A stretch of DNA of 56,758 nucleotides, from positions 1 through 56,758 of the IMG/VR virus record IMGVR_UViG_3300031566_000037; one strand, given 5' to 3'. Below are positions 3,457-45,269 of this stretch, piece by piece. Each line of letters begins with the position of its first letter. Position 1 is the stretch's first letter. The DNA comes from a virus. Below the pieces are notes generated by a model. That model saw nothing but the letters and a program-made list of their open reading frames with translations, ran no database searches and had not been told where the DNA came from. The position numbers and the translations under genes are program-made.

Positions 3457-3533
3457 TCGGCCCCTCCCTCGAAACCGTGGGCGGCGCCACCACGCCCCCT
3501 TCCCGTGAAACGCAGCGGCGCCACCTCCTGGGT

Positions 3534-12665: not shown

Positions 12666-12684
12666 CGGTGGCTCCTTCCCGTTG

Positions 12685-14527: not shown

Positions 14528-14530
14528 TTT

Positions 14531-15580: not shown

Positions 15581-15590
15581 CGCTACCCCC

Positions 15591-15887
15591 TCAATCGCTT
15601 ACCCAAAAAATGTTCACAAAGGCATCCCGCCCGAGCATCTCCTCGCGGCCAGCATCGCTATTGAAATCGGCCAGGCCCAGCGGCCGGAACCAGATTGCCT
15701 CTTGCTCCCTCGTCATCCTGATGTCCCCCAATGGTGGGATCACGCCATCGCGGATCCAAGACGTGACCTCACCCTCGTTGCTGGGATCTCCCTCGCCGCC
15801 GCCATAGAGTGTGTACTCACGGACGTCCGGCTGCGTGTTTCTCTTGGGATCGTAGGACAACGCGATCCATCTCTGTGGTGTTGCCAT
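15591..15887 (-). CDS. hypothetical protein (98 aa)
   Basis: ORF in operon context. Confidence 0.5.
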   Translation of the reverse strand: MATPQRWIALSYDPKRNTQPDVREYTLYGGGEGDPSNEGEVTSWIRDGVIPPLGDIRMTREQEAIWFRPLGLADFNSDAGREEMLGRDAFVNIFWVSD

Positions 15888-15890
15888 TGG

Positions 15891-16445
15891 TTATGCCTCC
15901 CTTTTTGTCGTTTGGAAACGGTGCCAGCCCCGCCTGATATAACAGGCTTCCCATTGGGTTGCCAACTCAAGAAGCGCGTCCTCGAGTTCGGGCGGCGCCT
16001 CCTGATCATTCAGGATCCCCATCGCTATATCGGCATATTCTTCAGCGCGGATTTCCTGGATCCGTGATTCCCACGGCATCCGCTTGTGATCGAATGGTTC
16101 CTTGCGCTGCCAATCTCTAACGTGTCCAAGCTCATGGCAGCACGTTCTGTAGAATCGGCTGGCTACCCTAAGGAAATCGTCCTCTAGCCGTCGGTGCTGT
16201 GGTCGGATGACCACAAACCCACCATCGGTTTCGATCCAACGCTTGCCGCCATTGCGCACCAGGAGATAGCGCCGGACGGATCGGCAGCCAGTAGCCGTTG
16301 AAGCCAGCCGCCAACTCCGTCCCCCTCGCGTAACCTTCACAACAACGCCCCGGGCAATCCGGCACCTAACCGCTTTGGCCGCGCAGGTCAGAATCGTCTT
16401 TAGCGTGGCGTCTTCGAAGTGTGAGTTGTTATAGAGTTTGATCAT
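15891..16445 (-). CDS. HExxH zinc-metallopeptidase-like protein (SprT/ImmA-like)
   Basis: 184 aa containing CCHELGHVRDW. Confidence 0.5.
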   Translation of the reverse strand: MIKLYNNSHFEDATLKTILTCAAKAVRCRIARGVVVKVTRGGRSWRLASTATGCRSVRRYLLVRNGGKRWIETDGGFVVIRPQHRRLEDDFLRVASRFYRTCCHELGHVRDWQRKEPFDHKRMPWESRIQEIRAEEYADIAMGILNDQEAPPELEDALLELATQWEACYIRRGWHRFQTTKREA

Positions 16446-16458
16446 GGCGCCTACCTCT

Positions 16459-16749
16459 TCAAATCTTTCCGATTAGTATCGTCAGCTCGCCTGGGCTGAG
16501 ATACGTGCCACAGTCCGCGCAGAGGGCTGCGCTGAACACTCGCTCTTGTTCCTTCTCGCCATAAATTTCCTTCGCCCGCATCCCGCTAGGCGGGATGGGA
16601 TAAACAAACAGCCTCGTATGAACAATTACTTCAAATTCCCGGCCACCGCAGGTGTTGCAGGTTAATGGCTTTTCCGAACGGCGCTCCCGCCGCGCCTGCC
16701 TTAGTATCTGTGCATCTTTGAAAGTCGCTCTCTTGCCCATCATTTCCAC
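16459..16749 (-). CDS. zinc-ribbon protein (~93-96 aa)
   Basis: Cysteine pairs CNTCGG...CADCG. The start is one of 16749, 16743 or 16740. Confidence 0.55.
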   Translation of the reverse strand: MEMMGKRATFKDAQILRQARRERRSEKPLTCNTCGGREFEVIVHTRLFVYPIPPSGMRAKEIYGEKEQERVFSAALCADCGTYLSPGELTILIGKI

Positions 16750-16841
16750 CTCGTTTTGTTCGGCTTCTAATCAACCGGCGAGGCGGCGCCAGTGTCTAGC
16801 CCACGATTCCCCGGCGCCGCCCCCACCGCTCGGCCTCGTTA

Positions 16842-17207
16842 TTATCCCGCGGCCTCCTCTTCCGGCTCGCTCCCTACGGTCTGCAGATCAGCCAGTTTGG
16901 CCTCCCAATCGGGATCGGTCGTCTTCAGGTCGGCCTCGACCTTCCCGACCTGCTCCATCAGGCCTTCCATATCGCGGAGAAGCGCAAGCCGCTTCTTGAC
17001 CAGGCGTGCCCGGCGATTCCAGAGTGCATCGATCTTCCGCTGCTTGCGGACGCCGATGTGGCTCGCCTTGAATTCCTGCCGCTCCGCCTTCGCCTGCTCC
17101 TTGAACTCGGCAGGCGCACAGGCGGGATGATAAGGATTCATGTGGTCATCGTAAACCGTGAATCCGGCAATCGGTCGCTCGCATTTTGTACAGATTATTT
17201 CCGTCAT
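16842..17207 (-). CDS. zinc-finger plus coiled-coil protein (121 aa)
   Basis: ATG at 17207 preceded by GGAGGATAACAAG. Cysteine/histidine pattern CTKCERP...YHPAC. Confidence 0.55.
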   Translation of the reverse strand: MTEIICTKCERPIAGFTVYDDHMNPYHPACAPAEFKEQAKAERQEFKASHIGVRKQRKIDALWNRRARLVKKRLALLRDMEGLMEQVGKVEADLKTTDPDWEAKLADLQTVGSEPEEEAAG

Positions 17208-17653
17208 CTTGTTATCCTCCATCTACTAGTGAAATTTCTGTGGATCCCCCTTCGTGGTTCAAATCCCGTTTGCTATACAACGTCGAACGTTCTATTCCCA
17301 CCGCTGGCCGCTCCCGTGATTTAACACCGAGCAGGCGCTGCTGGGCTTCCCAGGCTTTCGATCCCGAGTTATGAGGCGCCGCGCGAGGCGATCTTCGTAC
17401 CCCTTCTTAGCGATTCGTTCGGGTTGTCAGTCCTATCCTTGGCCAGGCGCATCCTCCGGCCTGGCCTTGGATCCAGGTTCGCTTCTACCTGCTCTTATTG
17501 TCTTCCCCGATCGGCTCCGCAGTTTATCCGGCTGGGCTTCCCCTCGCCTGCTATGCCGTTGTGGAGCCGCCTTTTGCTCCGCGAGGTCTTGCCGATCGGC
17601 CTCTGTCCGTGTGTGCTACATCCTTTCAGGCTATTCGGTTGTAAGGGTTCCGT

Positions 17654-18180: not shown

Positions 18181-18234
18181 ACCCATTGCAAATGGCCAGG
18201 AACGGTGCGAAATTCCTGGCCATTTGCAATGGGT
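18181..18234 (-). terminator. Perfect 22-bp hairpin, putative terminator of the late operon
   Basis: acccattgcaaatggccaggaa, a 10-nt loop, then ttcctggccatttgcaatgggt. Starts 22 nt after the stop at 18256. Followed by only TTTA on the minus strand. Confidence 0.6.
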
Positions 18235-18492: not shown

Positions 18493-19329
18493 TTAGCCTC
18501 CTTTCGTGATATCATAATACTTGCAAGTTGCGGGAGCACATCCCTTGAATCCACTGTGTAATTCCCCGTCTTTCGGGCAGCGCCATTTCTCTCCTTCCCA
18601 ACGTAGACCCTTTAGCCATTCGCACCAGAGCGGTAATCCCGGACTCGTCCCCGGGCGAAAAGCATTCCACCATACCTGCCGACCACGCAGCCCGGCCTGC
18701 CAGCGTTCATAGGTTACGGGCACATCGAAATCCACCGTCTCATCGAAAACCACGCGCGTAGTCCCGGCCCTTTGAAACGCCAACCCCGGCGTGATCTTCC
18801 AATCGCCGATATAGGCCAGGCCATACCAAACCCGATAATATCGCCAGAGCTGTCCGCAGTGATGTTCCTCTGCGTCTTGCCGCTTCGCCGCGAGATCCAA
18901 TACGCGCCGGAGCGTCTTCCCGGCCCGGTCGTAATACTGGCGCCGAATGGCCATCCCCCATATCTCGGCTTCGCCGGTATAAAACATCGTCTCGCCCTTC
19001 ACCAGTAGATCCATGCAAAAATCTGAATAGTAGACATCACCTAAGAGGACAATGGTCTGTTCTGTCCCCCACAGATCGCGGGTAGAATATAGGGTTTCGC
19101 ACGTCCAGCGATGCCCGCGTGGCTCAAAAAACCTGGCGCGGATCCCGGCCTCTTCATATACCTCGGGCTGATGGGTAATCAACCAGGTGGGGATCCCGCG
19201 TGCAGCGCATTGATTTAATGTGCGCTGGACGAGCGGCGCGCCGTCGATCTCAAGCAATTGCTTGACAACCCCGCCGAAGCGCGTGGCCTGCCCGGCGCAG
19301 AGGATAACTGCTACAACCGGATCATTCAT
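18493..19329 (-). CDS. sugar-phosphate nucleotidyltransferase-like protein with Cys-rich C-terminus
   Basis: ATG at 19329 (ATGAATGA overlap with the upstream stop). VAVILCAGQATRFGGVVKQLLEIDGAPLV is the GxGtRx(n)K nucleotidyltransferase signature. Confidence 0.7.
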   Translation of the reverse strand: MNDPVVAVILCAGQATRFGGVVKQLLEIDGAPLVQRTLNQCAARGIPTWLITHQPEVYEEAGIRARFFEPRGHRWTCETLYSTRDLWGTEQTIVLLGDVYYSDFCMDLLVKGETMFYTGEAEIWGMAIRRQYYDRAGKTLRRVLDLAAKRQDAEEHHCGQLWRYYRVWYGLAYIGDWKITPGLAFQRAGTTRVVFDETVDFDVPVTYERWQAGLRGRQVWWNAFRPGTSPGLPLWCEWLKGLRWEGEKWRCPKDGELHSGFKGCAPATCKYYDITKGG

Positions 19330-20008
19330 CGGACTCGGCCCCCGTTCGATAATATGCATGTTTCGCCGAAAGGTTCTCGCGGATCCTGTTGCCCATTGCC
19401 AGGTCGACCGCATCAAATGTAACCCCCATCCGCGTGTGAATTTCAATGATCCAATCGAATCTGTCGTCAGTAAGGAGTCCCTTGGCGCCTGCCAATACGT
19501 CCAGCTCGCTGCCCTCCACATCGATTTTCACCAGGCCCGGCTTCCCGACCAAAGGATAATCCGCACGCTGACGTAATATGTCATCGAGGCTAACCGCATC
19601 TAATCCTACCTCGGCATCGTTGGCTTCGACTGGGCTCCATGGGGTTTGGCTGCGCTTTGCCTTCTGCCCTTCGCGACCGGCAAAGCATAGGTGCCGGCAG
19701 ACATTCGGGAGCAGCTGTGTATTCCAGCACAATAACCCGAATCGCAGAGCGTTGGCCTCTAAGGCGACAACCGATCGGCAGTGATGTGCGGCGATCATTG
19801 TGTGGTAACCCCAGCCCGCGCCGACATCAAGGAAAAACCCATATCGTTCTGACTCCAAGATCCCCACGATCGGCGCTTCGTAAGAGAGGTCTTTGAACCA
19901 GGAATTCCGGTTGGTGAAACTTATGTGTAGCGGCGATGGCCCGTGCGACCAAAAGTCGCCATATCTGTTCCGTCCATTCAGCAATTCAATGCGGGGGTTT
20001 ATAACCAT
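19322..20008 (-). CDS. FkbM-family methyltransferase
   Basis: Motifs FLDVGAGWGYHT...VVALEAN and LVKIDVEGSELDVLAGAK. Confidence 0.8.
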   Translation of the reverse strand: MVINPRIELLNGRNRYGDFWSHGPSPLHISFTNRNSWFKDLSYEAPIVGILESERYGFFLDVGAGWGYHTMIAAHHCRSVVALEANALRFGLLCWNTQLLPNVCRHLCFAGREGQKAKRSQTPWSPVEANDAEVGLDAVSLDDILRQRADYPLVGKPGLVKIDVEGSELDVLAGAKGLLTDDRFDWIIEIHTRMGVTFDAVDLAMGNRIRENLSAKHAYYRTGAESDE

Positions 20009-20988
20009 CGGCCCAGCACCTCCTTATATGCATTCATTGTCTGTCGCCCTGCGATTTCCCAGGTATAGTTCTGAAGCATCCGCATCTGGATCTGCGCTGT
20101 ATCCGTCGCAGTCGCCTTCAGACATCCCTGCATACTTTCCGGCGTGAACGGATCGATATAATAGACTGCATTCCCAAAGTACTCGCGGGCAGATCCGCGG
20201 TTAGTCGGCGCGACCGGCACCCCCAGCGCGGCGGCCTCTAACACGGCCAGGCCCGGGGTTTCATAGATGGATGGCTGCGCGACAAGCCTGGCGCCTTTCA
20301 TGTAGTGATAGATCCTCGGGGGCGGGATCCCCATAAAAAACTCTGTCCGCGCACGTCTCTTCTGCGCCATCTCCCAGCAGGCCCAATAATAATCATGTTC
20401 ATAATGACAGTCGCCTACCATCAAAATCGGCACATCGACATCGCGCATGGCACTGAGAAATCGGAATTGATTTTTCCGGCCTTCATTGCGCCCAACGATC
20501 AGGATGTAGTCTCGCATGTCGCAGAGTTCCCAATCCTCGAGTCCATTCCCATTTGTCTGCTCATTAATGTCGGGGGGCACAGCGTTTACCACGACTCGCA
20601 TCTTAGACTTCGGCACCTGGAACTCTCCGGAGATAAGCGCCGCCTCAGCATGGCTATTCGGGAGCAATAGGTCGGCTTCATGGTAAGCCCAATGGAACTG
20701 CCGCAGGTGATGTGCCATTCGCCGCTGCGGGTGATGCATCTCCTTGTAAGTCCAGTAAATCGTGGAGAGCACGATCTTTTTGCCGAGGCTACGAGCCTCG
20801 GCCATCCGCATCGGGGTCTTCCCATACACACCGAAAAAGTGAACTACCTTGGCCTTTGTCCAGTCATAGACAATTTCGACGCCTAACCGCTCAAGCCATT
20901 TGATCGTCTCGGCCTGCTGGGTTTCCATCCCGCCGAAACCGGCAGGTTTCCCGAAGCCAAAGCCCTGCCGGTGGATTGCGACGCGCAT
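19999..20988 (-). CDS. family 1/4 (GT-B fold) glycosyltransferase
   Basis: 329 aa. YETPGLAVLEAAALGVPVAPTNRGSAREYF matches the E-x7-E type motif. Confidence 0.85.
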   Translation of the reverse strand: MRVAIHRQGFGFGKPAGFGGMETQQAETIKWLERLGVEIVYDWTKAKVVHFFGVYGKTPMRMAEARSLGKKIVLSTIYWTYKEMHHPQRRMAHHLRQFHWAYHEADLLLPNSHAEAALISGEFQVPKSKMRVVVNAVPPDINEQTNGNGLEDWELCDMRDYILIVGRNEGRKNQFRFLSAMRDVDVPILMVGDCHYEHDYYWACWEMAQKRRARTEFFMGIPPPRIYHYMKGARLVAQPSIYETPGLAVLEAAALGVPVAPTNRGSAREYFGNAVYYIDPFTPESMQGCLKATATDTAQIQMRMLQNYTWEIAGRQTMNAYKEVLGRWL

Positions 20989-30576: not shown

Positions 30577-31125
30577 TTACGTGGCCGGACAAGTCGATTG
30601 AATCTCTATGTTCCCAAAAGGCTCTGCAGGATGCAGAGACGCACAGTCGGTTGCCCGGAACCGAATCGGGAACTCCACAATCGACTCGCCGAACTCCATG
30701 GTAAACTCTGCGGTAATGAGCGCAGCCCACAGGTTGATATTCAACCACTTGCTGGCACAGGGGAACGCATGCTCAAACCGCACGCCATAATGCCTGCCAC
30801 AATCCGGCTTTTTGAACGGGATCTTACACGATGAAACATCGGGGATCCAATTCACTCCCAGGGCAGTCGCCAGATTATAGACGGTGATCTCATGGATGAG
30901 CACTTCCAACTCAAACTCTGCGCGGATTGGAATCGCAGCATCGAACTGACCATCCCGGCTACGGTAATGGTCAATGTATGTCGGGCGATAGGTAAAGCGT
31001 ATCACCCCACACTCGCCGAGATTCGTTTCCGCGCCACCGCTGTGGTTACAGACAAAGACCTGACCAGAATTGACCGTGTAATTCTCGTTGGTCGATTCTT
31101 CGGTGCAGGCGTCACAGATGGACAC
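30577..31125 (-). CDS. major tail (tube) protein candidate, Cys-rich
   Basis: GTG at 31125 lies 8 nt after GAGGAGG (track ORF extends to 31134). Assigned from position before the chaperones. 9 Cys in ~182 aa. Confidence 0.55.
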   Translation of the reverse strand: MSICDACTEESTNENYTVNSGQVFVCNHSGGAETNLGECGVIRFTYRPTYIDHYRSRDGQFDAAIPIRAEFELEVLIHEITVYNLATALGVNWIPDVSSCKIPFKKPDCGRHYGVRFEHAFPCASKWLNINLWAALITAEFTMEFGESIVEFPIRFRATDCASLHPAEPFGNIEIQSTCPAT

Positions 31126-32027: not shown

Positions 32028-32380
32028 TCCTGCCCCGGCCTTGTCGGCGGCACCTTGATTTCACGCACCCAACATTTCATGTATTCCATCGAATCTTGAC
32101 CGCGTGGCCGTTTGGCCATCGTAACGATCATCTCTGAGCCTCCGGAGCGGATCACCTTGTCGCCGGTTTGGATGTCTTTCAATTGCCCGATCATCATGAA
32201 GCGCGCTACCTGGCGCTCGCCTTCATCGGCATATAGGGTCTCGGCATCGGGGTGATAAATCCGGCAATGATACCGCGCGATGTGTGCCGTGAAGACCGGG
32301 ATCTTGCCACATGCGCTATCGCTAAGCGTGGTCTTCCGCTGGATCGCTACGGTTTCATTCAACAACAATCCGCGATACAT
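32024..32380 (-). CDS. head closure / head-tail adaptor candidate (118 aa)
   Basis: Assigned from size and position. Confidence 0.45.
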   Translation of the reverse strand: MYRGLLLNETVAIQRKTTLSDSACGKIPVFTAHIARYHCRIYHPDAETLYADEGERQVARFMMIGQLKDIQTGDKVIRSGGSEMIVTMAKRPRGQDSMEYMKCWVREIKVPPTRPGQD

Positions 32381-33372
32381 TAAAACACCCGCCCCCCAAA
32401 CTGCTTCCGCAGGAAACTGAACAGCAACCCGTCGATCGCAGGGATCCCGGTCTCATTATGCACCGCCGCACGTTCGAATAATTCCCGGAGAGTATAGGCA
32501 TAGCCGTCCACCGATTCGCTCGCAAAGTTCGCAAACATCGGCGCGGTAACTGTGTCCCACTTCCCGCCCTCTTTCAGGAGCAGACACGTTGCCAGCGATA
32601 TGGGATCCGGACATGCGGCATAGAGCCCCCAGGTCGCCTCGACTGCGATATTCTTAAACCCATATGGGAATATCGACGATGTCCCACTGCAGTATGCCAC
32701 TGCGGCTTCGCCGGTCGGCGGATCCATCTGGTTCCGCGGCCACGGTCGACCGTCTTTATGGATCAGCCAAGTCCCGCGGATCCTATAATCTGCGACCGTG
32801 AAAGTCGCTGTAGAATCATCAAGATTCGTGATGGCGGTCAATTCCAGGATCGGCCCATCGCATGGCAAATAGAACATCCCGGTGCCATCGACATAGCGGG
32901 TCTCTTGTACTGGCAAAAAATGCTGCCCGCAGACTCGATCGATGATCGACATAGCAATCCGAATGAGATATTGAATATCATCATCCGGCAGCGGGCTGCT
33001 TATGAGACAGCGTGCACGCGCCTCGGTTACGGACAGGTAATAATCCGCAGCTGCAAACGTCCCAGCTGCATAGACATAGAATTCCAGCGTGGCCGTTACG
33101 GCATCGTGCCCAGCCTCCGGGGTGTAGTACCACTTGTCATAATGCTTACCCAAAGTCTCGGCGCCAGGGACGGCCCAATCCACATAATAAAGCCCGGTAG
33201 CATCGCGCACGATCCCGCTGGCCACAAAGGTGTGTAAAACCGTGAGATCCGCCGCGAGAATCTCTACCTGCGTGAATGCATATGGGTCATAAAGATTCCC
33301 CTCGGGATCGTGGAATTTGATGCCAAGTCGGACGGTCTGGCCCCGCTCGGCAGCATAGCGTGAAACGGCCAT
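32380..33372 (-). CDS. Ig-like domain fused to gp6-like head-tail connector
   Basis: The N-terminal ~105 aa is a beta-sandwich similar to the two upstream genes. The middle segment (YYLSVTEARARCLISSPLPDDDIQYLIRIAMSIIDRVCG) resembles gp6-type DNA-packaging/connector proteins. Confidence 0.5.
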   Translation of the reverse strand: MAVSRYAAERGQTVRLGIKFHDPEGNLYDPYAFTQVEILAADLTVLHTFVASGIVRDATGLYYVDWAVPGAETLGKHYDKWYYTPEAGHDAVTATLEFYVYAAGTFAAADYYLSVTEARARCLISSPLPDDDIQYLIRIAMSIIDRVCGQHFLPVQETRYVDGTGMFYLPCDGPILELTAITNLDDSTATFTVADYRIRGTWLIHKDGRPWPRNQMDPPTGEAAVAYCSGTSSIFPYGFKNIAVEATWGLYAACPDPISLATCLLLKEGGKWDTVTAPMFANFASESVDGYAYTLRELFERAAVHNETGIPAIDGLLFSFLRKQFGGRVF

Positions 33373-33384: not shown

Positions 33385-33693
33385 CTAATATGCCTGCGCG
33401 GTGAAACCACGCAATGCTTCGATGATGTCCTCATCGACATCAAACACCTGAAACGAAAAACATGGCGGGATAGAGCAGTCCAGGGTCACCAGCCATGCCC
33501 CGAGTGCATCCGGGGTGAAGTCCGCGTAGTAGACTGCCGTCGCGCCGATCTCTACCGCACCCGGCGCCAGCGCCAGCACCAGCAAGGGATTGTAGACTTC
33601 AACCGTGATATTCCCGGCGATCCCCGTTGCCAAGGTTTTGTCCGCATTTAGGATCCGCATGAACACGCGGATTGGTTCGTTAATGATGTTCAT
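33385..33693 (-). CDS. Ig-like small virion protein (102 aa)
   Basis: Beta-sandwich pattern ITVEVYNP...AVYYADFTPDALGAWLVTL. Confidence 0.5.
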   Translation of the reverse strand: MNIINEPIRVFMRILNADKTLATGIAGNITVEVYNPLLVLALAPGAVEIGATAVYYADFTPDALGAWLVTLDCSIPPCFSFQVFDVDEDIIEALRGFTAQAY

Positions 33694-33983
33694 GCGGTAA
33701 TCGTCCCTTCCTGATATACAAAGAAACTCCCCCAGCCATAGACAGCGTCGGCAACGACGCTCACGGAAACTTTATGCATTCCGCCGCTGTCTGGTGTGGC
33801 GTTGTAATAATATTCTCCGCCCCCGATCTCGGTTGCATTCCCGGATGCGAGGATTGTGTTGTCCTCGCGCCGGACTTCGACCGCGACTGTTCTGCCCGTC
33901 AGCGGCCCGGTTTCATCAACCACCGCGATCGGGATCTGGATCTGTTTCCCGATCGGATGTAGCCCACACCAGCCTGTGCTCAT
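33690..33983 (-). CDS. Ig-like small virion protein (97 aa)
   Basis: Beta-sandwich pattern IQIPIAVVDETGPLTGRTVAVEV...GEYYYNATPDSGGMHKVSV. Confidence 0.5.
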   Translation of the reverse strand: MSTGWCGLHPIGKQIQIPIAVVDETGPLTGRTVAVEVRREDNTILASGNATEIGGGEYYYNATPDSGGMHKVSVSVVADAVYGWGSFFVYQEGTITA

Positions 33984-34007
33984 GGCGTTATCTCCAATGT
34001 AGTTGCG

Positions 34008-34685
34008 TTATACATTTTCCCAATATCCAACTGTTCTGAAGAGAACTATCCCCATGCCCGCGCCACTGAAATCGGCACAAAAGCAGAACTTCTGGTCGAC
34101 GATTTTAATAATCGTTGTGAAATTGAATTGAGCGTTGACTGCCTGGAGCCTATAGCTTTGCCGCTTCCCGTTAGCCTCAGATTCATACGGGTGTAGGACT
34201 AACCGACCGGCGATAGCTGCTCTGTCTAAATATGTCACATACACCAGGGCGGCAACGACATCGCTGCTTAGAAACTCTGAACAATCTACCTCAAAGTATT
34301 TGAAGGCCCAAGGGGAACTGACAGTCGGACTGTTAGTGGTAATCGCATCCCCCGCGCTCCATGCCACGGTCATAGGTGCTGTCAAAGTAATTCTATTTGT
34401 CAGCGTGTTCACCGATTCAATCAGCCTGTATTCTCCGATGGTTGAATTGTATAGTCTCAGGTGCCCGATCTCGTTCCCGGTCACAAGTCTCGGCACAATG
34501 CTGTCTTCATTGCCGACAACATTTTTATAGACCAAAATGGTATCTGAAACAAACGTATCTATCTCCGCGGCAAAAATTGTATCACTGCTAGCGGCATTCC
34601 CGAAAATCTCATCGTCACTCGTGTAGTTAACAAACCTCGTGAGGGGGCTCGGAACGCTACCGCCGATCCTGGTTACAATGATCAT
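34008..34685 (-). CDS. hypothetical virion-module protein (225 aa)
   Basis: ATG at 34685 (ATGA overlap). Confidence 0.5.
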   Translation of the reverse strand: MIIVTRIGGSVPSPLTRFVNYTSDDEIFGNAASSDTIFAAEIDTFVSDTILVYKNVVGNEDSIVPRLVTGNEIGHLRLYNSTIGEYRLIESVNTLTNRITLTAPMTVAWSAGDAITTNSPTVSSPWAFKYFEVDCSEFLSSDVVAALVYVTYLDRAAIAGRLVLHPYESEANGKRQSYRLQAVNAQFNFTTIIKIVDQKFCFCADFSGAGMGIVLFRTVGYWENV

Positions 34686-35401
34686 GATACCCGCGCTCCT
34701 CTCGGACTCGAGTTCGGGATTGCCGCACAGTTCCATGACCAGCCGTTGCCGACGATTCCGCCGTTATAGTGTGGTACACTCGCATCGTGTACCTGCGTGC
34801 CGGAGCCTTCATCGAAATTGAATCGCATGAGATCGGTCGGGCGAGCGGCAAATGGGTATCCGGTCATGAGCGGCCAGTCCACATAGTCACTGCAAATCGC
34901 CAATTGCCAAATCCGCATTGCCATGCCCCGGCCAACCATCGCCGACGCTTCTGGCAGCAACATCACAAATGCATTCCCGACCGGCCACGGCGGTTTGAGG
35001 CTCCCATTAATCACGGCTTGGTATGCTGTCTGGATCGGTGGGAAGAGAGAGATGCTTTGTACCCGCCACTCGATGAAGTAATGCGTGCCGACCACCATTT
35101 TATTGACAACAGCGTTGCCGTAGCCTCCGGTGCCGACGCCCGCCCAGCGGACGGCAAAAAAGTCGTGTGTGCCCTCGACATAGATTTCAATGCCTTCAAC
35201 TATAGCCCCGCCAGCATCCCGCGTTGCCCATTCGAATAGATACGCATCGTGTGGCGCTGGCATATTCAAGACCTCAAACTCCATTGTAACTGTGAGATTT
35301 TTCCGGTCACTTGGCTCCGGCATTGGAATCGCAACGTGCGCGCTGCCCGGCGTATCGCCTGGCAATTCGATGTAACAGCGCCGCTGTTTAGATACCCCCA
35401 C
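34682..35401 (-). CDS. concanavalin/LamG-like protein (239 aa)
   Basis: GTG start 6 nt after GGGGGAG. RFNFDEGSGTQVHDASVPHYNGGIVGNGWSW is a typical LamG-domain entry motif, but here it sits at the C-terminus. Confidence 0.5.
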   Translation of the reverse strand: MGVSKQRRCYIELPGDTPGSAHVAIPMPEPSDRKNLTVTMEFEVLNMPAPHDAYLFEWATRDAGGAIVEGIEIYVEGTHDFFAVRWAGVGTGGYGNAVVNKMVVGTHYFIEWRVQSISLFPPIQTAYQAVINGSLKPPWPVGNAFVMLLPEASAMVGRGMAMRIWQLAICSDYVDWPLMTGYPFAARPTDLMRFNFDEGSGTQVHDASVPHYNGGIVGNGWSWNCAAIPNSSPRGARVS

Positions 35402-35420
35402 TGCTTACTCCCCCGGAATC

Positions 35421-35855
35421 CTACAGGATCCCGTAAGTATAAGATCCATAATCAGCATCGATCCGCATGGCCCCAGGCCCGGCTGGACGGATGAAATATC
35501 CACGCGCGGTAAACGTAATGGCCTTCCCACCGCTGGCCCGCCGCACCACAAATTCCGCATTGGCCGGCAGAATCATTGCCTGCACATAGGTGCGCTTCCC
35601 GTGTTCGTAAAACCCCTGCACGTAGTCGAATTCAAAAAAGGTGCCGCCCTGTTGATATGCCAATACCAATTCTGTGCTGGCCTGATCGCCACTCGGGAAA
35701 TCCAGATCTTGAATCGCGATACAATAGTGGCTCGGCGGCCTCACGATAATATGCCAGTTATCATCGGCCCAGGTCATTGGTACACGATACCAGGATTGAA
35801 CCGGCTTTCCAAAAGCAACGGCGCGCCGGAATTTATTGATCATCGGATAGCCCAT
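35421..35855 (-). CDS. hypothetical virion-module protein (144 aa)
   Basis: RBS GAGGAGGAG. Confidence 0.5.
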   Translation of the reverse strand: MGYPMINKFRRAVAFGKPVQSWYRVPMTWADDNWHIIVRPPSHYCIAIQDLDFPSGDQASTELVLAYQQGGTFFEFDYVQGFYEHGKRTYVQAMILPANAEFVVRRASGGKAITFTARGYFIRPAGPGAMRIDADYGSYTYGIL

Positions 35856-36943
35856 GTCTTCTCCTCCTCGCGGACATTTGTATTAACTCTCTCCGCAATC
35901 GCCTGACGAACACGAGCAATGATCTCGCTGGATGAAATCGCTCGCATACACTCCAGCGTCGTACATGTCGGTCTCTTGTCAAAGCAGGGACACTTGGGTA
36001 GCCCCAGGGATCCCGCCTTCCAAATTGGAAAGGCATATCGATAATGCGATAAGCGTAATCGTGGCGGCCAGCTTGAGTATAGATCTATATGAGGGGTTTC
36101 AACCGCTTCCGCCAAATGACACAACCCGGTATCCGGAGAGATCACGGCATCGCATTCGGCGACGATCGCACATAGCTGCCGGATATTGAGCTGCCCCGTG
36201 AGATTCAGATCGGCTGGCCAATCCAGGAAGTCGTTGTACGTTAAAACCGCCGACATATTCTCTTCATTCAGGCGATGCGCCACTTCAATGACTTGCGCCT
36301 CGGGGAATGTCCGCAGATGGATCGTGCTGCTTTTCGCAGCGATAGCCACGCGCGGCGCTGGGACTTCAGCGAGAGTCTGCCTGGCCCATTGGCGTTCGGC
36401 CTCGGTCAAGACGGGCACACAGAACCGATACTCCTTGGGGCGGCTCCCGAGGAGATAATCAAAATAGATATCGATCCGATCGGTGGTATATTTCGCATGA
36501 TGCCGTTCAGCGAATCCCCGCAAATCGATTGCATCAAAAGATCCCCGCATGCTGGAGATTTGATAGGTGCAGGTAAGCCATGGCACGTTTTCAAATAGCT
36601 CGCGGTGATAAGAATTAGTCGCCCAGGCAAAGCGCAGATGTGGGTGTGCCTCATCCAACGCTTTGATCGCTGCCGAGATAATCACCAGATCGCCGAGACC
36701 AATGTCGCGGACAATAACAACCTCTGTCCCGGGGCGGAGTTTCTTCAAGTGATCCGATGGCCAGAGCCGGAAGTCTTTGTAGGGGTCTCGGAAATATCCC
36801 GTCCGCAATAGCCAGTTATAATCGTGCTCACATTTAACACCGAAGATCTCGCCGCGCAGAGCGTGGTAGGTGTTGCTCATGGGGACGGTGCCCTGCCATG
36901 AAACGGAACGCTTCAGGATCAGGTGCCCGCAATACTTCGGCAT
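35840..36943 (-). CDS. family 9 glycosyltransferase (heptosyltransferase-like)
   Basis: VVIVRDIGLGDLVIISAAIKALDEAHPHLRFAW matches the GT9 N-terminal motif. ISPDTGLCHLAEAVETPHIDLY matches the DsG..HlAaA motif. Confidence 0.8.
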   Translation of the reverse strand: MPKYCGHLILKRSVSWQGTVPMSNTYHALRGEIFGVKCEHDYNWLLRTGYFRDPYKDFRLWPSDHLKKLRPGTEVVIVRDIGLGDLVIISAAIKALDEAHPHLRFAWATNSYHRELFENVPWLTCTYQISSMRGSFDAIDLRGFAERHHAKYTTDRIDIYFDYLLGSRPKEYRFCVPVLTEAERQWARQTLAEVPAPRVAIAAKSSTIHLRTFPEAQVIEVAHRLNEENMSAVLTYNDFLDWPADLNLTGQLNIRQLCAIVAECDAVISPDTGLCHLAEAVETPHIDLYSSWPPRLRLSHYRYAFPIWKAGSLGLPKCPCFDKRPTCTTLECMRAISSSEIIARVRQAIAERVNTNVREEEKTWAIR

Positions 36944-36965
36944 GGTTTACCCCTGGCAACATAGA

Positions 36966-37002
36966 GCAGGGAGTCCGCCCTTGGGCGCTGGCGGCTCCCT
37001 GC
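36966..37002 (-). terminator. Strong stem-loop 24 nt downstream of the capsid gene (attenuator/partial terminator)
   Basis: GCAGGGAG-t-CCGCC, a 10-nt loop, then GGCGG-CTCCCTGC: 13 bp with one bulge. Confidence 0.5.
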
Positions 37003-37025
37003 CCCGCGAAGATATCGTTGACGGC

Positions 37026-38057
37026 CTAGTAGGTGCTGGACTCGACGCAGCACTCATCCCTGGTCGTCAGGTGATCAAGCAATACTGCGGCATCGGTGTT
37101 GATGATGCCGGTATCGAACGCGATCCTGAAGATATGGAACGTCCGTGAATTCACGCCATCCCGCTGACGCTCGTAGTTGATATCATACTGAATACCAAGC
37201 ACGAGGTTCTTCGGGTCTGTCAGAAACATGAACGTCCCCGCCTGGCCATCTTCATAATGCCCGCAGGCATTCGCCAGATCGGTCGGCAGGAGCGGGATCG
37301 TTTCCATCGGAGTGGTCATCCAGGTTGCGGGAGCCTCCCCCGTGATAACCTTGTCCCCGAGGGCAGTCCCCCGCTTCTGCAGAATGTCTGCCCAATCCTG
37401 GAACACGTCGTCGGCCATGAAGAAGCGGAGTTTCTTTTTGTCCCGACGCCACTTGGTCGGGAGCTGCTTCATCATCTGCCCGAAATGACAGATGTCCAAG
37501 CAACAATTGGGGAAGGTCGGCGTCACAATGTGAGCCGCCTTGAGCTGCTTGTACCATCCATCGAAAAGGTGAAATACGCTGGTGTCTACATCCGCATGGA
37601 CATAGGAATGATCGATGTTGGCCATAAGCGCCATGATCTCCAACTCGTTTGCGAGCTGGGATCCGACCATCTTTAATACCTGCTTCTCCAGCGCATCGCC
37701 GGTGAGATTGTCTGCGAGCATGTCGTCGCAGATCGGGATGACGGCCTTGAATTTGCGCGCGGTCAGTTTGAAGCCTGTGGCCGACATGCCGCCGGTATCG
37801 ACGTAGTCACCACAGTTGTCCGGGCGCAGCATACCTTTGTTAATATCGATAAACCGCACCCACTTCTCATTGGTCGTCATCCGCTCGACTCTGACCTTGC
37901 TCCACAGCGTTGATTCATCGACGATGAAATCAATCAGCCGGTCAGCTTCCTCGGGCTGGATGATCGACGGCGCGCTCGAGCTTTGAATAGCCTTCTTAAA
38001 GTCGAACGTGTCCTTTGCTTCAACTCCAAGAAGCTGCATGGCGCGTGCCTTGCTCAC
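37026..38057 (-). CDS. major capsid protein (HK97-fold type)
   Basis: 343 aa. GTG start 6 nt after AAGGAGG. Assigned from position after the protease/scaffold gene and from an N-terminal region typical of major capsid proteins. Confidence 0.85.
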   Translation of the reverse strand: MSKARAMQLLGVEAKDTFDFKKAIQSSSAPSIIQPEEADRLIDFIVDESTLWSKVRVERMTTNEKWVRFIDINKGMLRPDNCGDYVDTGGMSATGFKLTARKFKAVIPICDDMLADNLTGDALEKQVLKMVGSQLANELEIMALMANIDHSYVHADVDTSVFHLFDGWYKQLKAAHIVTPTFPNCCLDICHFGQMMKQLPTKWRRDKKKLRFFMADDVFQDWADILQKRGTALGDKVITGEAPATWMTTPMETIPLLPTDLANACGHYEDGQAGTFMFLTDPKNLVLGIQYDINYERQRDGVNSRTFHIFRIAFDTGIINTDAAVLLDHLTTRDECCVESSTY

Positions 38058-38128: not shown

Positions 38129-39904
38129 CTACGTCTTCTTGCTGCCCTCTTCCTCCTCGACCGGAATATATCCGCCCAGCATAGTCGAGTATCTCATCCC
38201 GGGCTTGCCCTCGGCGCCCTTGGCACCATGCATTCTCTCCTGCATGGAAACGCCACGCGTGTGCTCGATCGCCTGCACGCGATGATCCATGCCCCGAACC
38301 ATGTTCAGGACAAGATCCATCTTGGCCGAAAGCGCTTTCTCGCCTTCGGTCTCATCCGCCCCGGCGCCACCGTCGCCAGCGCCTTCAGCGCCAGCCCCGG
38401 CATCGCCTTCCCCAGCGGCCCCGGCACCCTCCCCGGCACCGCCTTCACCAGCGCCTCCGGCGCCTTCAGCGGGCTTCTCGCCAGCGGGCTTGCCCTCCGG
38501 CTTGCCTGCAGCACCAGCAGCGCCCTGTGCGCCGCCTGTGCCCTCAACGGGGGACTTGCCCGTTCCAGGCGATGCCTGCTCCTTGGGCGGCTCCTGCGCG
38601 GCCCCAGCAGCGGAAGCCTCCGCGCTGGCCATGACGGCCGAGGTATTGGCATTAACCCGCGCGATAATGAGGTTAAACTGCGTGGCCACGGCGTTGGCAT
38701 CGGCCAACGCCTCCGGGGTGACCGGCTGCAGCTCATCCTGCTTCTTGCCGAACATCTGCATGAATTCGGCGACCACCTGCTTTGCTACGGCTTTGACGTC
38801 CATCGGCCTCCTCCCTCCTTGATTGAGCCAGAACATCCTCTCAGCATCTGTAGTATCCGCTATCTTTTGCCCATGCCCATTCGATCCGCTTTCGGATTCT
38901 ATAACAAGCGAACCCGTCCCGTTTTTGTATCCGGCAAAATCCTTTCTGATCGCACCCTTGATCACAAGCGAGAGATCTTTAATGTGAACATCCATCAGCT
39001 GGAAAATCCCCTTGCTGCTGGTAGTGCGGGGGATAATAGGGATCAGCGTCCATACTCCCCCGATCGAGAATCCGTTGAGTTCGCCATTTTGTACCTTGGC
39101 CCAGGCAACATCGGAACACCTCACCCCGGCGACGCCAGCGCCTGGCATGAAGAATTTCGACCCCTCCGGCGCCTGGAAGCATTCAACGAGATCGCCCACG
39201 CCGCCCCATAGGATGTGATTGATACCAATGCCCCTTGTCCGGCCCGCAGCATATTCAATCATGAATTCATGGATCGCCTTCCCGATCTCATATTCGCTCA
39301 GGAAATGCCCCTGCGCATCGGTAGCCCACGGCACCAGGAATTCTCCATAGACAACCTTTTGCGAAGCCATGAGGGGATCCTGGGCGAACTTGAAGAATAT
39401 CTTCCCGTCGATTTTCTGCGGCTTGTAGGCATCGCTCTGGAGCCGTGTCTTATTGGCGCGGATAAACTGCTCTGCCGCCAACTTGGTAAAGATGGAATCA
39501 TCGAACCAGACGGTAATTAGATCCCAGGTCTCGGTGCCCTCATTGAACCCAAACTCCAGCCGGACGCCTTCGCTGTCTCTGAAATTAACCATGGCGGTCT
39601 TATCATAGGAATACACATTCGGCTCGAGTTCAATAGAAAACCAATTCGTCTTAGCGCCAACCAGCGCCACGATTTCCCGGGGATCGATGATATCTTTTTC
39701 CCGTAACGTCCAGCTGCCGGCAGCATCTCTGGTGTATTTCTGCTTGACCGCTGCCCAGGCGGCAATGCGTGCCCCCTCCTCGCGCACGGATTCTTCGCCG
39801 GTCAGGGTTTGGTAGGTTGAATTGAAGATCCGGATCCAGATCGCCTGTGCGCCTTTCGGCAGGTTCTTAATCGTGTCCGGGGGATTTGATAGGAGATACG
39901 GCAT
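38129..39904 (-). CDS. ChaB-domain / XkdF-like prohead protease / scaffold fusion protein
   Basis: ATG at 39904 preceded by GGAGAAG. ChaB-like segment: IKNLPKGAQAIWIRIFN...ARIAAWAAVKQKY. XkdF-like segment: EFLVPWATDAQGHFLSEYEIGKAIHEFM...GELNGFSIGG. Then a Gly/Ala/Glu low-complexity region and a helical C-terminus. Confidence 0.75.
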   Translation of the reverse strand: MPYLLSNPPDTIKNLPKGAQAIWIRIFNSTYQTLTGEESVREEGARIAAWAAVKQKYTRDAAGSWTLREKDIIDPREIVALVGAKTNWFSIELEPNVYSYDKTAMVNFRDSEGVRLEFGFNEGTETWDLITVWFDDSIFTKLAAEQFIRANKTRLQSDAYKPQKIDGKIFFKFAQDPLMASQKVVYGEFLVPWATDAQGHFLSEYEIGKAIHEFMIEYAAGRTRGIGINHILWGGVGDLVECFQAPEGSKFFMPGAGVAGVRCSDVAWAKVQNGELNGFSIGGVWTLIPIIPRTTSSKGIFQLMDVHIKDLSLVIKGAIRKDFAGYKNGTGSLVIESESGSNGHGQKIADTTDAERMFWLNQGGRRPMDVKAVAKQVVAEFMQMFGKKQDELQPVTPEALADANAVATQFNLIIARVNANTSAVMASAEASAAGAAQEPPKEQASPGTGKSPVEGTGGAQGAAGAAGKPEGKPAGEKPAEGAGGAGEGGAGEGAGAAGEGDAGAGAEGAGDGGAGADETEGEKALSAKMDLVLNMVRGMDHRVQAIEHTRGVSMQERMHGAKGAEGKPGMRYSTMLGGYIPVEEEEGSKKT

Positions 39905-40139
39905 CGCGCTTCTTCTCCATGGCATCTAGCGTGCCCATGATCTGATTCAACTGTGAATTGAGCTCCCGGGCGAGCGCCGTTAATTCCATAAGGGTCTTGC
40001 GGACTTTCTGTTCTTGGTCAACGGGGATGGCGATTTCCATTCTAAGGGGTTGTGCCTTCATCCCCCCAGCATCCCGCAAGTCCATTACGTGCGGGTTTAA
40101 AATTCGTGGTCGATCTCCGTTGCCCTGCCCGTTCGCCAT
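39867..40139 (-). CDS. hypothetical protein (90 aa)
   Basis: RBS ACGGAGG. Overlaps the downstream start by 38 nt. Confidence 0.45.
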   Translation of the reverse strand: MANGQGNGDRPRILNPHVMDLRDAGGMKAQPLRMEIAIPVDQEQKVRKTLMELTALARELNSQLNQIMGTLDAMEKKRDAVSPIKSPGHD

Positions 40140-42723: not shown

Positions 42724-44277
42724 TTATTTCCCAAGCGAAGTGGCTTTAAGCCCACCGCGCGTCCTCTTGCCACAGGCGCTGGTGAAAAACCAAGATGCCA
42801 TCAGGCGATCGCCTGTATGCTCAACGGGATCGAAGCGTAACATATCATCTATCCATTCTGCCGATTGATGGTTCCTGGGGATCCGCCACATACGGTTTTC
42901 GAAGTCGACAGACATCGCGCGAACGCCCAGGGTAGGATCCGCCTTGTTCTTGCCCGTAGTAAAAGGATGCAACCGGATGGCCTTGGCGAATCGTTTAATT
43001 TCATCAAGCGCCATGGAGCCTTCGGATGGCGTGTTTTTGATGATGGCTCTAAAGATCTCATCGGCGCCTCTTAGGAACTGCAACAGATAATCCTGTGCCG
43101 AATTGTTTTCCACCTCAAACAGCACAGGCTTAAAACGATCCTGAATCTGACAGAAATTCTTGATGATGTCAACAAGTCCCATCCGGCCTGCGATGATATT
43201 GAGCACCACTTTTGTCCCATGCGGATCCACGCCGCCGATAAAAAACACCGTCTCATGTGCGCCGCGCTTCTTCTTGACCGCCAGGTCAACGCCGACATAG
43301 ACCTGCAGTTCATTATCGTCATAGCGGGAGACAAAATGCCTGCCTTCGGCCTCGGCCAGTTCAACGCATGTCTCAATCGCTGCCCGGCTGAAATCATCAC
43401 TCCCGCGTTCCTTGTCGGGGATATTCTTCATCGATCGTGCATACTCGATCGAGCTGACCTCGGCGAGTCTTTCCTTGCGGCGCCACTCCGGCCAACCACA
43501 GACCTCCCCCGATGGCATGATTTCAAGATCCGGCCAGAGATCATCGTCTGCATCATAGCGTTCGACGTGATAATTTGTATTCGCGGCAGCCCAATGCATC
43601 GCGTCTTCTGCGTGCCAGGCATTGCCGATCATCCAGAGGCGCGCCAGCGCGGTAAGCCTGGAGATCACCGTGTTCTTGACATATTCAATCACCCGCTTGC
43701 GCTGGCCCCGGGTTAGAGTGTTTTCGAAGTCGAGGATATCATCTAAGATAGCCAGGTCGAGGCGCGCTCCCATGATGTTCCCGTTCACCCCGACCGCCTC
43801 TACCGTATAATCCTTATTCGACAGATCCTTTCGCTCAACAACGATGTGACTGTCCTGCCAGCCCATGACTCGCCCGCGCCTGCGTTCAGGACGCACGTGT
43901 GGAAACACCGCCTGATAGCGTGCGTTATAGCCAATCGTCTGGCGGATCACGCCGAGAAATTTATGCGCCTGGCCAGCCGTATTGGAAACCAGCGCTGCGC
44001 GGATGTTGGTGTTCTTGCCGATCTCCCAGCTCAGGCGGCACACGGAAATTTGCATCGACTTCCCGTGCTCAACCGGAGCGAAAATAACCAGCCGCCGATA
44101 TTTATTGCAGAGATCCTGCCACTCGTCATGAAGGGGTTGTGCCTTCCAGCCGAAAACGTACTCGCCGAAGGTCGCCGGATCCTGCCTGGCTACCTGGATC
44201 GTGTCGCGTTCGTAAGCGCCGAGGTCGGCCTCCAGTAGATCCTGATCGTGCTCAATTTTCCCGGGGGAATCTGTCAT
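42724..44277 (-). CDS. terL: terminase large subunit
   Basis: ATG at 44277 (ATGA overlap). Walker A-like motif FAPVEHGKS. C-terminal nuclease-like region. Confidence 0.9.
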   Translation of the reverse strand: MTDSPGKIEHDQDLLEADLGAYERDTIQVARQDPATFGEYVFGWKAQPLHDEWQDLCNKYRRLVIFAPVEHGKSMQISVCRLSWEIGKNTNIRAALVSNTAGQAHKFLGVIRQTIGYNARYQAVFPHVRPERRRGRVMGWQDSHIVVERKDLSNKDYTVEAVGVNGNIMGARLDLAILDDILDFENTLTRGQRKRVIEYVKNTVISRLTALARLWMIGNAWHAEDAMHWAAANTNYHVERYDADDDLWPDLEIMPSGEVCGWPEWRRKERLAEVSSIEYARSMKNIPDKERGSDDFSRAAIETCVELAEAEGRHFVSRYDDNELQVYVGVDLAVKKKRGAHETVFFIGGVDPHGTKVVLNIIAGRMGLVDIIKNFCQIQDRFKPVLFEVENNSAQDYLLQFLRGADEIFRAIIKNTPSEGSMALDEIKRFAKAIRLHPFTTGKNKADPTLGVRAMSVDFENRMWRIPRNHQSAEWIDDMLRFDPVEHTGDRLMASWFFTSACGKRTRGGLKATSLGK

Positions 44278-45269
44278 CGCCCAACGTACCCTAACCCCTC
44301 GAGCCGTTTTAAAACCTCCGGATCCGCAGTCGGCCACGGCAGGGACGGCCCGGGTTGTTTAATGGAAAACCGGCGCAGAATCGTATTGAGCATCATGTGG
44401 TGATTGGCAGGTTCATAGACTTCACGAACGGCCAGCTGGATCGGCAATGGTGTCCGTGCGATGAGAGGAACCCGGATGAGTTCGGGAAACATCCCATAGG
44501 CATGAATACAAAAGCCCCGCTCGCCTAAGCCTTCACCGTGGTCGCCGGTAACGAAGATCTCGGCATCAGGAAAGGCGTCAAAGAGTTCAGGCATCTTCGA
44601 ATCGAGAAACCGGATCGCCCCATCATAAGCAGCGATGTAACACGCCGGATGGTTGGCGATGCGTTTGCCGAAATACCGCGAGCCCTCCGCTGTCCACTCC
44701 TGGCTATCCTCGCCGCACCACTCGATCAGCGCGCCGATCTTGTCGAGGATCTTCATGCCCGGCATCGCCATCGGCCCCCAGCGCTTCTTGTGGGTTTGCC
44801 AGAGAGCATCCCCGACAAAGCGCTGGTGGTTGCCCCAGGGCTGATACATCGCATGCGTCTCCTGCAGGTGCAGCACCCCGAAAAACTCCGGGCGGCCTCG
44901 ATGCGCAGCGATAAAGGCATCGATCATCTGATTCGCCGTTGGCCTCTTGCCGCGCCGGTGGTACCACGCAGGCCAGGATTTGAAGTCGAAAACGCTCGTG
45001 GCCATGCGCTGGCCTGCCGGTGTCGCGTTGCCGCTGTAGAATGATGTGTGGATCTTGTTGCGGGAGATCGTCAGTGCATAGTTGGCGATCCGCTGGAACG
45101 TCCCCTTAGTCGCCGAGGCGTTAGACTTAAAATCGTTCCACATCAAACCCTTGGCTCCGGTTACGACGGAATCCAAGAACGGAGTCGTCTCGCGATCGTA
45201 CCCATAACAATGAATATGATCGCTCCGCAAACACTCGATCATGACAAGAATAACCTGTGTTTTATTCAT
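44274..45269 (-). CDS. alkaline-phosphatase-superfamily (sulfatase-like) hydrolase/transferase
   Basis: 331 aa. Motifs VILVMIECLRSDHIHCYGYD and IFVTGDHGEGLGERG. No CxPxR formylglycine motif seen. ATGA overlaps at both ends. Confidence 0.7.
   Translation of the reverse strand: MNKTQVILVMIECLRSDHIHCYGYDRETTPFLDSVVTGAKGLMWNDFKSNASATKGTFQRIANYALTISRNKIHTSFYSGNATPAGQRMATSVFDFKSWPAWYHRRGKRPTANQMIDAFIAAHRGRPEFFGVLHLQETHAMYQPWGNHQRFVGDALWQTHKKRWGPMAMPGMKILDKIGALIEWCGEDSQEWTAEGSRYFGKRIANHPACYIAAYDGAIRFLDSKMPELFDAFPDAEIFVTGDHGEGLGERGFCIHAYGMFPELIRVPLIARTPLPIQLAVREVYEPANHHMMLNTILRRFSIKQPGPSLPWPTADPEVLKRLEGLGYVGR

Follow-up and report, generated by a model that had tools for sequence, protein, structure and literature searches.

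A GT9-family glycosyltransferase gene fixed behind the major capsid gene in an uncultured lineage of tailed phages: a candidate virion-glycosylation enzyme

We report here the analysis of a 56,758-nucleotide stretch of viral DNA (IMG/VR record IMGVR_UViG_3300031566_000037, positions 1 to 56,758; hereafter the window), which carries, directly behind the gene of the major capsid protein, a gene encoding a glycosyltransferase of family GT9 (35840..36943, minus strand; 367 residues). The same order, with a stable RNA hairpin between the two genes, is found in all nine distinct relatives, and this arrangement suggests, without proving it, that these phages sugar-coat their own particles. Among tailed phages, self-encoded virion glycosylation has so far been documented only for actinobacteriophages and, in the literature searched, neither a GT9 gene within the head module of a phage nor the glycosylation of capsids by a GT9 enzyme has been reported. 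The ends of the window form an identical and exact 127-bp direct terminal repeat (1-127 and 56632-56758), indicating that it represents a complete phage genome of ~56.6 kb, circular or terminally redundant, and nearly all of its genes lie on the minus strand.

The family assignment, first proposed in a sequence-only reading of this DNA on the basis of two hallmark motifs, is supported by profile and fold comparisons alike. The protein matches Pfam PF01075 (Glyco_transf_9) at 2e-13, with 50.7 bits for a cutoff of 22, and this domain is present in 15 of 15 database homologs. An AlphaFold2 model built on 13 homologs (predicted local distance difference test, pLDDT, 86.7) has the GT-B fold and, in Foldseek, its matches at ranks 1-30 are all GT9 enzymes or TibC (E-values from 1e-13 to 1e-7), in the order 3tov (a Veillonella GT9 structure), WaaF (1psw), WaaC (2gt1/6dfe) and then TibC (4rap). 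WaaF and WaaC are also the best sequence matches in the PDB. Regarding the hallmark motifs, the first is GLGD, containing D85, and the second is SPDTGLCHLAEA, containing D271. D85, R211 and D271 are invariant in the 13 homologs and align to D13, K192 and D261 of WaaC, while the donor-binding motif D271-T-G-x-x-H, also invariant in the 13 sequences, aligns to D261-T-G-x-x-H of the same enzyme. The gene is thus that of a true GT9 enzyme, in which the catalytic residues have been preserved.

Enzymes of this family (CAZy GT9) normally take part in building the core of bacterial lipopolysaccharide (LPS), as do the inner-core heptosyltransferases WaaC (HepI) and WaaF (HepII). With them, the phage enzyme shares not only PF01075 and the GT-B fold but also the catalytic Asp in a GD motif, the K/R-x-W/F-P motif and the D-T/S-G-x-x-H-L motif. 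It differs from WaaC and WaaF of E. coli by an additional conserved N-terminal domain of 72 residues and by a cluster of four cysteines, and it is encoded between a capsid gene and virion genes, whereas WaaC and WaaF are encoded in the waa/rfa locus. Moreover, although its best NCBIfam matches are LPS heptosyltransferase models, its scores are far below the equivalog cutoffs of all of them (TIGR02193, 60.5 bits for a cutoff of 185.3; TIGR02195, 40.6 for 134.6; TIGR02201, 16.2 for 170.2). The GT9 family also includes transferases of sugars other than heptose.

The N-terminal extension (residues 1-72; 36728..36943, minus strand) is specific to this lineage and is predicted by AlphaFold2 to be rich in beta structure, with five strands and one helix modelled at a pLDDT of 83-94. 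All family members possess this extension of ~72 residues, in which R30, G31, E39, Y42, L45, D53 and P54 are invariant across the 13 homologs, and the nearest cellular GT9 protein, P0015, lacks it; it has no match in Pfam. The cysteine cluster (C318, C320, C327 and C332; 35948..35992, minus strand), which all family members share close to the C-terminus, is a putative metal finger. C320, C327 and C332 never vary and P319 hardly does, and the low confidence of AlphaFold2 at residues 318-325 could be expected for a metal-dependent loop.

This domain order is reminiscent of TibC and AAH, the GT9-fold enzymes of the BAHT family, which O-heptosylate autotransporter proteins (PMC4358343). In TibC, a beta-barrel (residues 1-97) is followed by the catalytic Asp-110 and then by a four-cysteine iron finger, and both the barrel and the finger are required for action on the substrate (PMC4358343). 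Likewise, the phage enzyme is predicted to comprise an N-terminal beta domain, a GT-B core with the catalytic Asp ~12 residues into it and a C-terminal four-cysteine cluster, and it would be, as the BAHT enzymes, a cytoplasmic enzyme encoded beside genes of structural or surface proteins. TibC chains are significant matches in Foldseek (3e-10, TM ~0.55). There are also differences: the cysteines are spaced as CxC-x6-C-x4-C in the phage enzyme versus C339, C342, C358 and C370 in TibC, the N-terminal domain counts ~70 residues (predicted beta-rich) versus 97, and the putative acceptor is a phage capsid protein and not a beta-helical autotransporter. Membership in the BAHT family was considered and rejected, as a profile of the 13 homologs finds WaaF, WaaC and 3tov among PDB sequences and does not find TibC at E <= 10. 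We therefore take the resemblance to TibC as a functional analogy, and do not count the enzyme among the members of that family.

The GT9 gene is closely tied to that of the capsid protein. The major capsid protein (37026..38057, minus strand; 343 residues) was identified with PHROG 1623, at 6.7e-53, and PHROG 10 (major head protein). Its identity to proteins annotated as major capsid proteins in phages of Streptomyces and Clostridium is ~27%, and no closer relative was found among cultured phages. Close homologs of the GT9 protein are rare, with only 14 found among 5.8 billion proteins, all metagenomic. In every readable contig, the order portal, Mu-F, ChaB-protease, capsid gene, hairpin and GT9 is maintained, and the succession of capsid gene, hairpin and GT9 holds in 9/9 distinct relatives, across capsid identities of 99-46% and GT9 identities of 98-35%. 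The earlier observation that a GT9 gene is embedded behind the capsid gene of a head-assembly block hence extends to a fixed arrangement. Indeed, GT9 identity falls in step with capsid identity, which fits a long vertical co-inheritance and not the recent insertion of a moron. By contrast with this fixed order, the genes located 3' of GT9 are mosaic between relatives, and as these genes come and go, the capsid gene is the sole constant neighbour of GT9.

No close capsid relative devoid of GT9 was found, a scan of IMG/VR and JGI metagenomes having returned only GT9-bearing genomes. The gene is missing only from relatives at 27% identity, namely Streptomyces phage Sham and Pseudomonas phage PA_L9, in which small hypothetical genes and no glycosyltransferase follow the capsid gene; hmmsearch detected no sequence similarity between these post-capsid genes and the 144- and 239-residue proteins encoded behind GT9 in the window. 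More generally, GT9 genes are nearly absent from the 50,697 phage records searched. The phage GT9 had no match among them by tblastn, and a generic cellular GT9 query retrieved only bacterial contamination, small fragments, two Campylobacter 'phage' assemblies and a GT9 fragment of 222 residues in the jumbo phage XacN1, where the context is unrelated. Similarly, PHROGs contains no family that matches GT9.

A second conserved feature of the locus is the hairpin that separates the two genes. The 13-bp stem-loop (36966..37002) pointed out in the sequence-only reading proved to be the core of a longer, GC-rich one (36963..37005, minus strand), with a 16-bp stem containing one bulged base, a 10-nt loop and no U-tract. 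When the minus-strand RNA is folded, its stability is -31.6 kcal/mol (z = -3.8), a value that 0 of 200 dinucleotide shuffles attained. Over the entire transcript strand, it belongs to the seven most stable local folds of 50 nt, ~4.4 standard deviations below the genome mean (-11.9 for all 50-nt windows, with a standard deviation of 4.5), and is the only intergenic hairpin of such strength within the structural module. A terminator scan did not call it because of its 10-nt loop and the lack of a U-tract. Every relative has a strong hairpin at the same site, formed by unrelated sequences (38% mean column identity, two invariant columns) and followed, in some of them, by a short UUU run.

The end of the hairpin lies 20 nt from the GT9 start codon. 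As this gap leaves no room for a promoter, GT9 must be expressed by read-through from the capsid gene. From this context, the hairpin may lower the dose of the enzyme, as the sequence-only reading had proposed; it could just as well stabilise the 3' end of the capsid mRNA. Phage late operons are known to contain stem-loops or leaky terminators behind the capsid gene, T-phi after gene 10 of phage T7 being an example. The arrangement described here is similar in that a stable hairpin follows the most abundant structural gene and the downstream genes depend on read-through, and it differs from these leaky terminators by the absence of a U-tract in this genome, with just three U in some relatives.

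GT9 is not the only glycan-related gene of this phage. Past the lysis genes and within the late transcription unit, the late operon ends with a cassette (18493..20988) encoding, all on the minus strand, a GT4 glycosyltransferase (19999-20988; Pfam Glycos_transf_1 at 7e-17), an FkbM-family methyltransferase (19322-20008; TIGR01444 at 2e-15) and a MobA-like nucleotidyltransferase (18493-19329; NTP_transf_3 at 5e-10). Just past the last late gene, a perfect 20-bp hairpin (18184-18233, -33.8 kcal/mol) is probably the terminator of the late operon. Identical copies of the GT4 protein occur on contigs from many samples, seven of these contigs being 50-200 kb long. In the most distant relative available on a long contig (L023, IMGVR_UViG_3300037264_005663; capsid 47% and GT9 36% identical), the equivalent site (10492-17653) is occupied by a different cassette, with a GT_PLOD-like glycosyltransferase, Methyltransf_24, an FkbM methyltransferase, a B12-binding radical-SAM enzyme, Methyltransf_11 and a cupin/D-lyxose-isomerase-like protein. 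The presence of differing cassettes at the same site suggests a rapid exchange of tailoring genes. A conserved, capsid-linked glycosyltransferase accompanied by an exchangeable tailoring set is the pattern expected of a priming enzyme with variable elaboration.

An additional candidate for glycan tailoring is a soluble enzyme of the alkaline-phosphatase superfamily, annotated as 'sulfatase' (44274..45269, minus strand; Pfam PF00884 at 1.3e-18), whose gene lies between that of a helix-turn-helix protein and that of the large terminase, immediately upstream of the latter. At 1.5e-7, under the cutoffs of the models, its N-terminal part aligns with the beginning of the catalytic domain in EptA and CptA, which are phosphoethanolamine transferases, and no CxPxR sulfatase motif was seen in the protein. 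From its sequence, it is possibly a glycan-substituent transferase or an esterase. The gene is conserved in relatives L001, L003 and L009 and is lacking in L007.

Based on this genomic context, the reading that we tentatively favour is that the GT9 enzyme starts a glycan on a protein of the virion, most likely that of the capsid, by adding its first sugar, and that the variable cassette elaborates this glycan. In this scheme, the enzyme would be made late, from capsid-gene transcripts that pass the stable hairpin, with no promoter of its own. It would transfer, in the cytoplasm, a first sugar onto a virion protein, this sugar being probably a heptose provided as ADP-heptose by the host. The acceptor would most probably be the major capsid protein because it is the only neighbour conserved everywhere. 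The GT4 enzyme, the FkbM methyltransferase and the nucleotidyltransferase would then extend and methylate the glycan, leading to a phage-specified glycan coat on the particle. A more ambitious proposition, which we put forward with marked reserve, is that a whole lineage of tailed phages may have recruited GT9 as a dedicated capsid glycosyltransferase priming a modular and fast-exchanging glycan pathway, the latter including GT4 or GT-A enzymes, O- and C-methyltransferases, a radical-SAM enzyme, a nucleotidyltransferase and a phospho-substituent enzyme.

Such a scheme has precedents in actinobacteriophages. Phages such as Che8, Corndog and Myrna have glycosylated virions (Freeman et al. 2023, as cited in PMC12619734, PMC12363180, PMC13313380 and PMC11256854), and in mycobacteriophages the glycans are described on the C-termini of capsid and tail-tube subunits (PMC12619734). 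The same literature links this glycosylation of capsid and tail-tube proteins to phage glycosyltransferases, with a methyltransferase alongside in some genomes (PMC12619734, PMC13313380, PMC12363180), and the coating shields the particles from antibodies (PMC12363180, PMC11256854). Furthermore, the pairing of a glycosyltransferase with a methyltransferase has been read as a sign of virion glycosylation in actinobacteriophages (PMC13313380), and the phage described here possesses such a combination, with two glycosyltransferases (GT9 and GT4) and the FkbM methyltransferase.

As in actinobacteriophages, we are thus dealing with a tailed phage that has its own glycosyltransferases and methyltransferase, together with conserved Ser/Thr-containing C-terminal tails on the capsid protein and on a putative tail tube protein. 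The C-terminal tail of the capsid protein, TTRDECCVESSTY, is conserved among relatives, the consensus of this end (37026-37064) being TTR(D/T/N)ECCV(E/P)xS(T/G)(Y/F). A protein of 185 residues, whose position and high degree of conservation point to the tail tube, has an end (30577-30606) that is likewise conserved across relatives, with the consensus IEIQ(S/T)(S/T)CPA(T/S). These Cys- and Ser/Thr-rich tails could be sites of modification or of disulfide formation, and their parallel with the C-terminal glycan sites of mycobacteriophages is suggestive only. The systems also differ in several respects. The glycosyltransferase genes of Che8-like phages are found towards the 3' end of the genome (PMC11256854), whereas GT9 is here directly behind the capsid gene, and the GT9 family was not reported for actinobacteriophage systems in the literature searched. 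In addition, if the donor is ADP-heptose, as assumed here, the hosts are probably Gram-negative, unlike those of actinobacteriophages.

Several observations weigh against virion glycosylation. The sequence of the GT9 protein is nearer to LPS-type GT9 enzymes (WaaF, 2.4e-8; WaaC, 4e-7) than to TibC, and Foldseek likewise places the LPS enzymes ahead of TibC. The four-cysteine cluster, which gives the protein the same predicted domain order as TibC when considered with the N-terminal beta domain and speaks to that extent for a protein acceptor, is also present in the cellular GT9 protein P0015 and hence is not diagnostic of protein acceptors. The C-terminal tails of the capsid and putative tail tube proteins are, as said, no more than suggestive. 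The supply of ADP-heptose by the host is an assumption, and general profile scans of the phage open reading frames (ORFs) revealed no genes of the heptose pathway. Finally, the location of the tailoring cassette is ambiguous, since the seroconversion cassettes of temperate phages also sit at the end of the late operon.

The main rival explanation, which we regard as unlikely, is that of a remodelling of the host envelope, in which GT9 would act during infection on a lipid-linked glycoconjugate of the host, such as the LPS inner core or a similar molecule. The GT4, FkbM, nucleotidyltransferase and alkaline-phosphatase-superfamily enzymes may assist it, the purpose being to block superinfection or to keep the progeny off cell debris, and the capsid-adjacent site would then be no more than a reflection of late and strong expression. 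This explanation accounts for the proximity of the enzyme, in sequence and in fold, to WaaF, WaaC and 3tov, and for the resemblance of the alkaline-phosphatase-superfamily enzyme to the catalytic domain of EptA and CptA, which transfer phosphoethanolamine to lipid A or heptose. It can also draw on the known seroconversion glycosyltransferases of phages and on the fact that phage-borne heptosyltransferases have earlier been read as LPS auxiliary genes (PMC10747093). However, the scores against all LPS heptosyltransferase equivalogs of NCBIfam are far under the cutoffs, the N-terminal domain of the GT-B core, which binds the acceptor, barely aligns to WaaC (E 16), and the conserved 72-residue N-terminal domain is missing from LPS enzymes. 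Moreover, no integrase, repressor or other lysogeny gene was present among the ORFs scanned and no prophage copy among 185,579 species genomes, which weakens a role in lysogenic conversion, while an expression dependent on read-through from the capsid gene would come very late for the remodelling of an envelope. Nor would it be explained why GT9 stays so strictly linked to the capsid gene, even in relatives with a capsid identity of 46%. If the target were nevertheless the host envelope, GT9 would represent an unusual LPS-modifying gene, expressed late and linked to the capsid gene in an apparently lytic phage.

Alternatively, the virion might be glycosylated on another acceptor, namely one of the proteins of 144, 239 or 225 residues encoded downstream of GT9, in the manner of the aah-aidA and tibC-tibA pairs. 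The genes of BAHT enzymes indeed adjoin those of their substrates (PMC4358343), and the gene of the 144-residue protein (35421..35855, minus strand) is closely connected to that of GT9: the two genes overlap by 16 nt at the 3' end of GT9, whose stop codon falls within the overlap, and the ribosome-binding site of the 144-residue protein, GAGGAGGAG, located inside GT9, is strong, which fits an abundant product. The AlphaFold2 model of this protein is a beta-sandwich jelly roll of moderate confidence (pLDDT 67), with weak Foldseek matches to the trimeric cement protein of phage KHP40, to jelly rolls of the nucleoplasmin and TNF-like kinds and to small 'virion structural proteins' of phages; a decoration or cement-like virion protein is plausible from this model, although weakly supported. 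The family has nine representatives among 1.84 billion proteins. Its gene is present in L001-3, L007, L008 and L014 and, as noted against its being the acceptor, is not present in L004, L006 and L015, all of which keep GT9. None of the three downstream proteins is universal and, as a conserved enzyme would thus be left without a conserved acceptor, we consider this alternative improbable.

The two other downstream genes are likewise restricted to some of the relatives. The three proteins encoded behind GT9, described as unknown in the sequence-only reading, have no family match; one of them had also been credited there with a LamG-type motif at its C-terminus. This 239-residue protein (34682..35401, minus strand) has no match in Pfam, PHROG or NCBIfam, and homologs were found only in L008 and L014 (54%), in L006 (28%) and in near-identical genomes. 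It does contain a conserved short C-terminal motif, RFNFDEGSGTQVHD...NG.IVGNGWSW (FDEGSG...NG..G..W), which may resemble the start of Laminin_G_3 domains. A LamG domain was nonetheless rejected, as no Pfam match was obtained at E <= 10 with the protein, its C-terminal 72 residues or two homologs, and a four-sequence profile of the family had as best PDB match an unrelated protein at E 1.3; only the short motif remains of that assignment. The third gene (34008..34685, minus strand) encodes a protein of 225 residues with no assigned function and no match in Pfam, PHROG or NCBIfam. It was obtained by trimming an ORF of 242 residues to M18: the start at 34685, which forms an ATGA overlap with the preceding stop, is most likely the correct one and not that at 34736, because homologs align only from residue 29 and near-identical contigs are called with 225 residues. 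This gene is found only in L001, L002 and L006. The possibility that the 239- and 225-residue ORFs are a single split gene was rejected, each being found without the other in relatives. The mosaic block behind GT9 (34001-36000) has the lowest G+C content of the genome, with 52.4% over these 2 kb versus 53-60% in the other 2-kb segments, which fits a more recent exchange of accessory genes.

The last explanation, a transfer of sugar to phage DNA or to a small molecule, or else a structural or chaperone role in head assembly, is very improbable: DNA glucosylation is a known role of phage glycosyltransferases (PMC12619734) and an assembly factor could well be encoded within the head-assembly block, but the invariance of the catalytic Asp, Arg and Asp and of the nucleotide-sugar motif across 13 homologs argues for an enzyme rather than a scaffold. 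Enzymes of the GT-B fold glucosylate the DNA of T-even phages; GT9 is not known as a family of DNA glycosyltransferases. DNA hypermodification was examined as a target and rejected, the ORFs scanned including no gene for hydroxymethyl-pyrimidine synthesis or base hypermodification.

The remainder of the genome, annotated by profile searches against Pfam, PHROG and NCBIfam, is that of a tailed phage. The late region begins with genes for a ParB-N protein, the helix-turn-helix protein, which is possibly the small terminase, the 'sulfatase' (44274-45269), the large terminase, the portal and a Mu-F-like protein. It continues with a fused head protease and scaffold protein of S78 type (38129-39925, minus strand), the major capsid protein (37026-38057), the GT9 block and the head-tail adaptor (32380..33372, minus strand; PHROG 442 at 1.2e-20), with which the variable block ends. 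Further on are the genes of the neck and tail, of the tape-measure protein and of a beta-helix fibre, those of an M15 endolysin and of the small membrane proteins accompanying it and, last, the GT4/FkbM/nucleotidyltransferase cassette. The protease and scaffold protein has an N-terminal ChaB domain (PF06150) and a long low-complexity stretch rich in Ala, Gly, Glu and Pro, an architecture kept in all relatives. Between the 225-residue protein and the head-tail adaptor, two small proteins of 97 and 102 residues (33385..33983, minus strand) are weak paralogs of each other (E 0.008). They have no family match and are conserved in L001, L006 and L008; they appear beta-rich from their sequence and may be small decoration domains of the head or neck.

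Regarding the host, the window offers few clues, as it contains no tRNA gene and no clear spanin pair beside the M15 endolysin, and the search of species genomes for prophages was, as mentioned, negative. No known RNA family was detected across the window with Rfam at gathering thresholds. The early or replication region, at 5489-5603 and 3479-3528, concentrates the strongest local RNA or DNA hairpins found in the genome (-33 to -38 kcal/mol); they lie partly within an ORF of 395 residues that has no family match, and an origin or a regulatory element is possible.

If these phages do glycosylate their virions with GT9, several consequences would follow. The known substrates of GT9-fold enzymes are LPS and autotransporters, and a phage virion protein would represent a new class of acceptor for them. 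In the literature and collections searched, protein heptosylation is confined to autotransporter adhesins and self-encoded capsid glycosylation to actinobacteriophages, and these phages would be the first exception to both. E. coli makes ADP-heptose, and the idea is therefore directly testable with synthetic genes even though the phage is uncultured; the capsid protein and GT9 would also provide a two-gene tool to produce glycan-coated phage particles. The glycosylation of phage particles would not be restricted to actinobacteriophages and would have evolved more than once, with a second and unrelated enzyme family, a case that the fixation of the gene next to the capsid gene and the probably Gram-negative hosts would strengthen.

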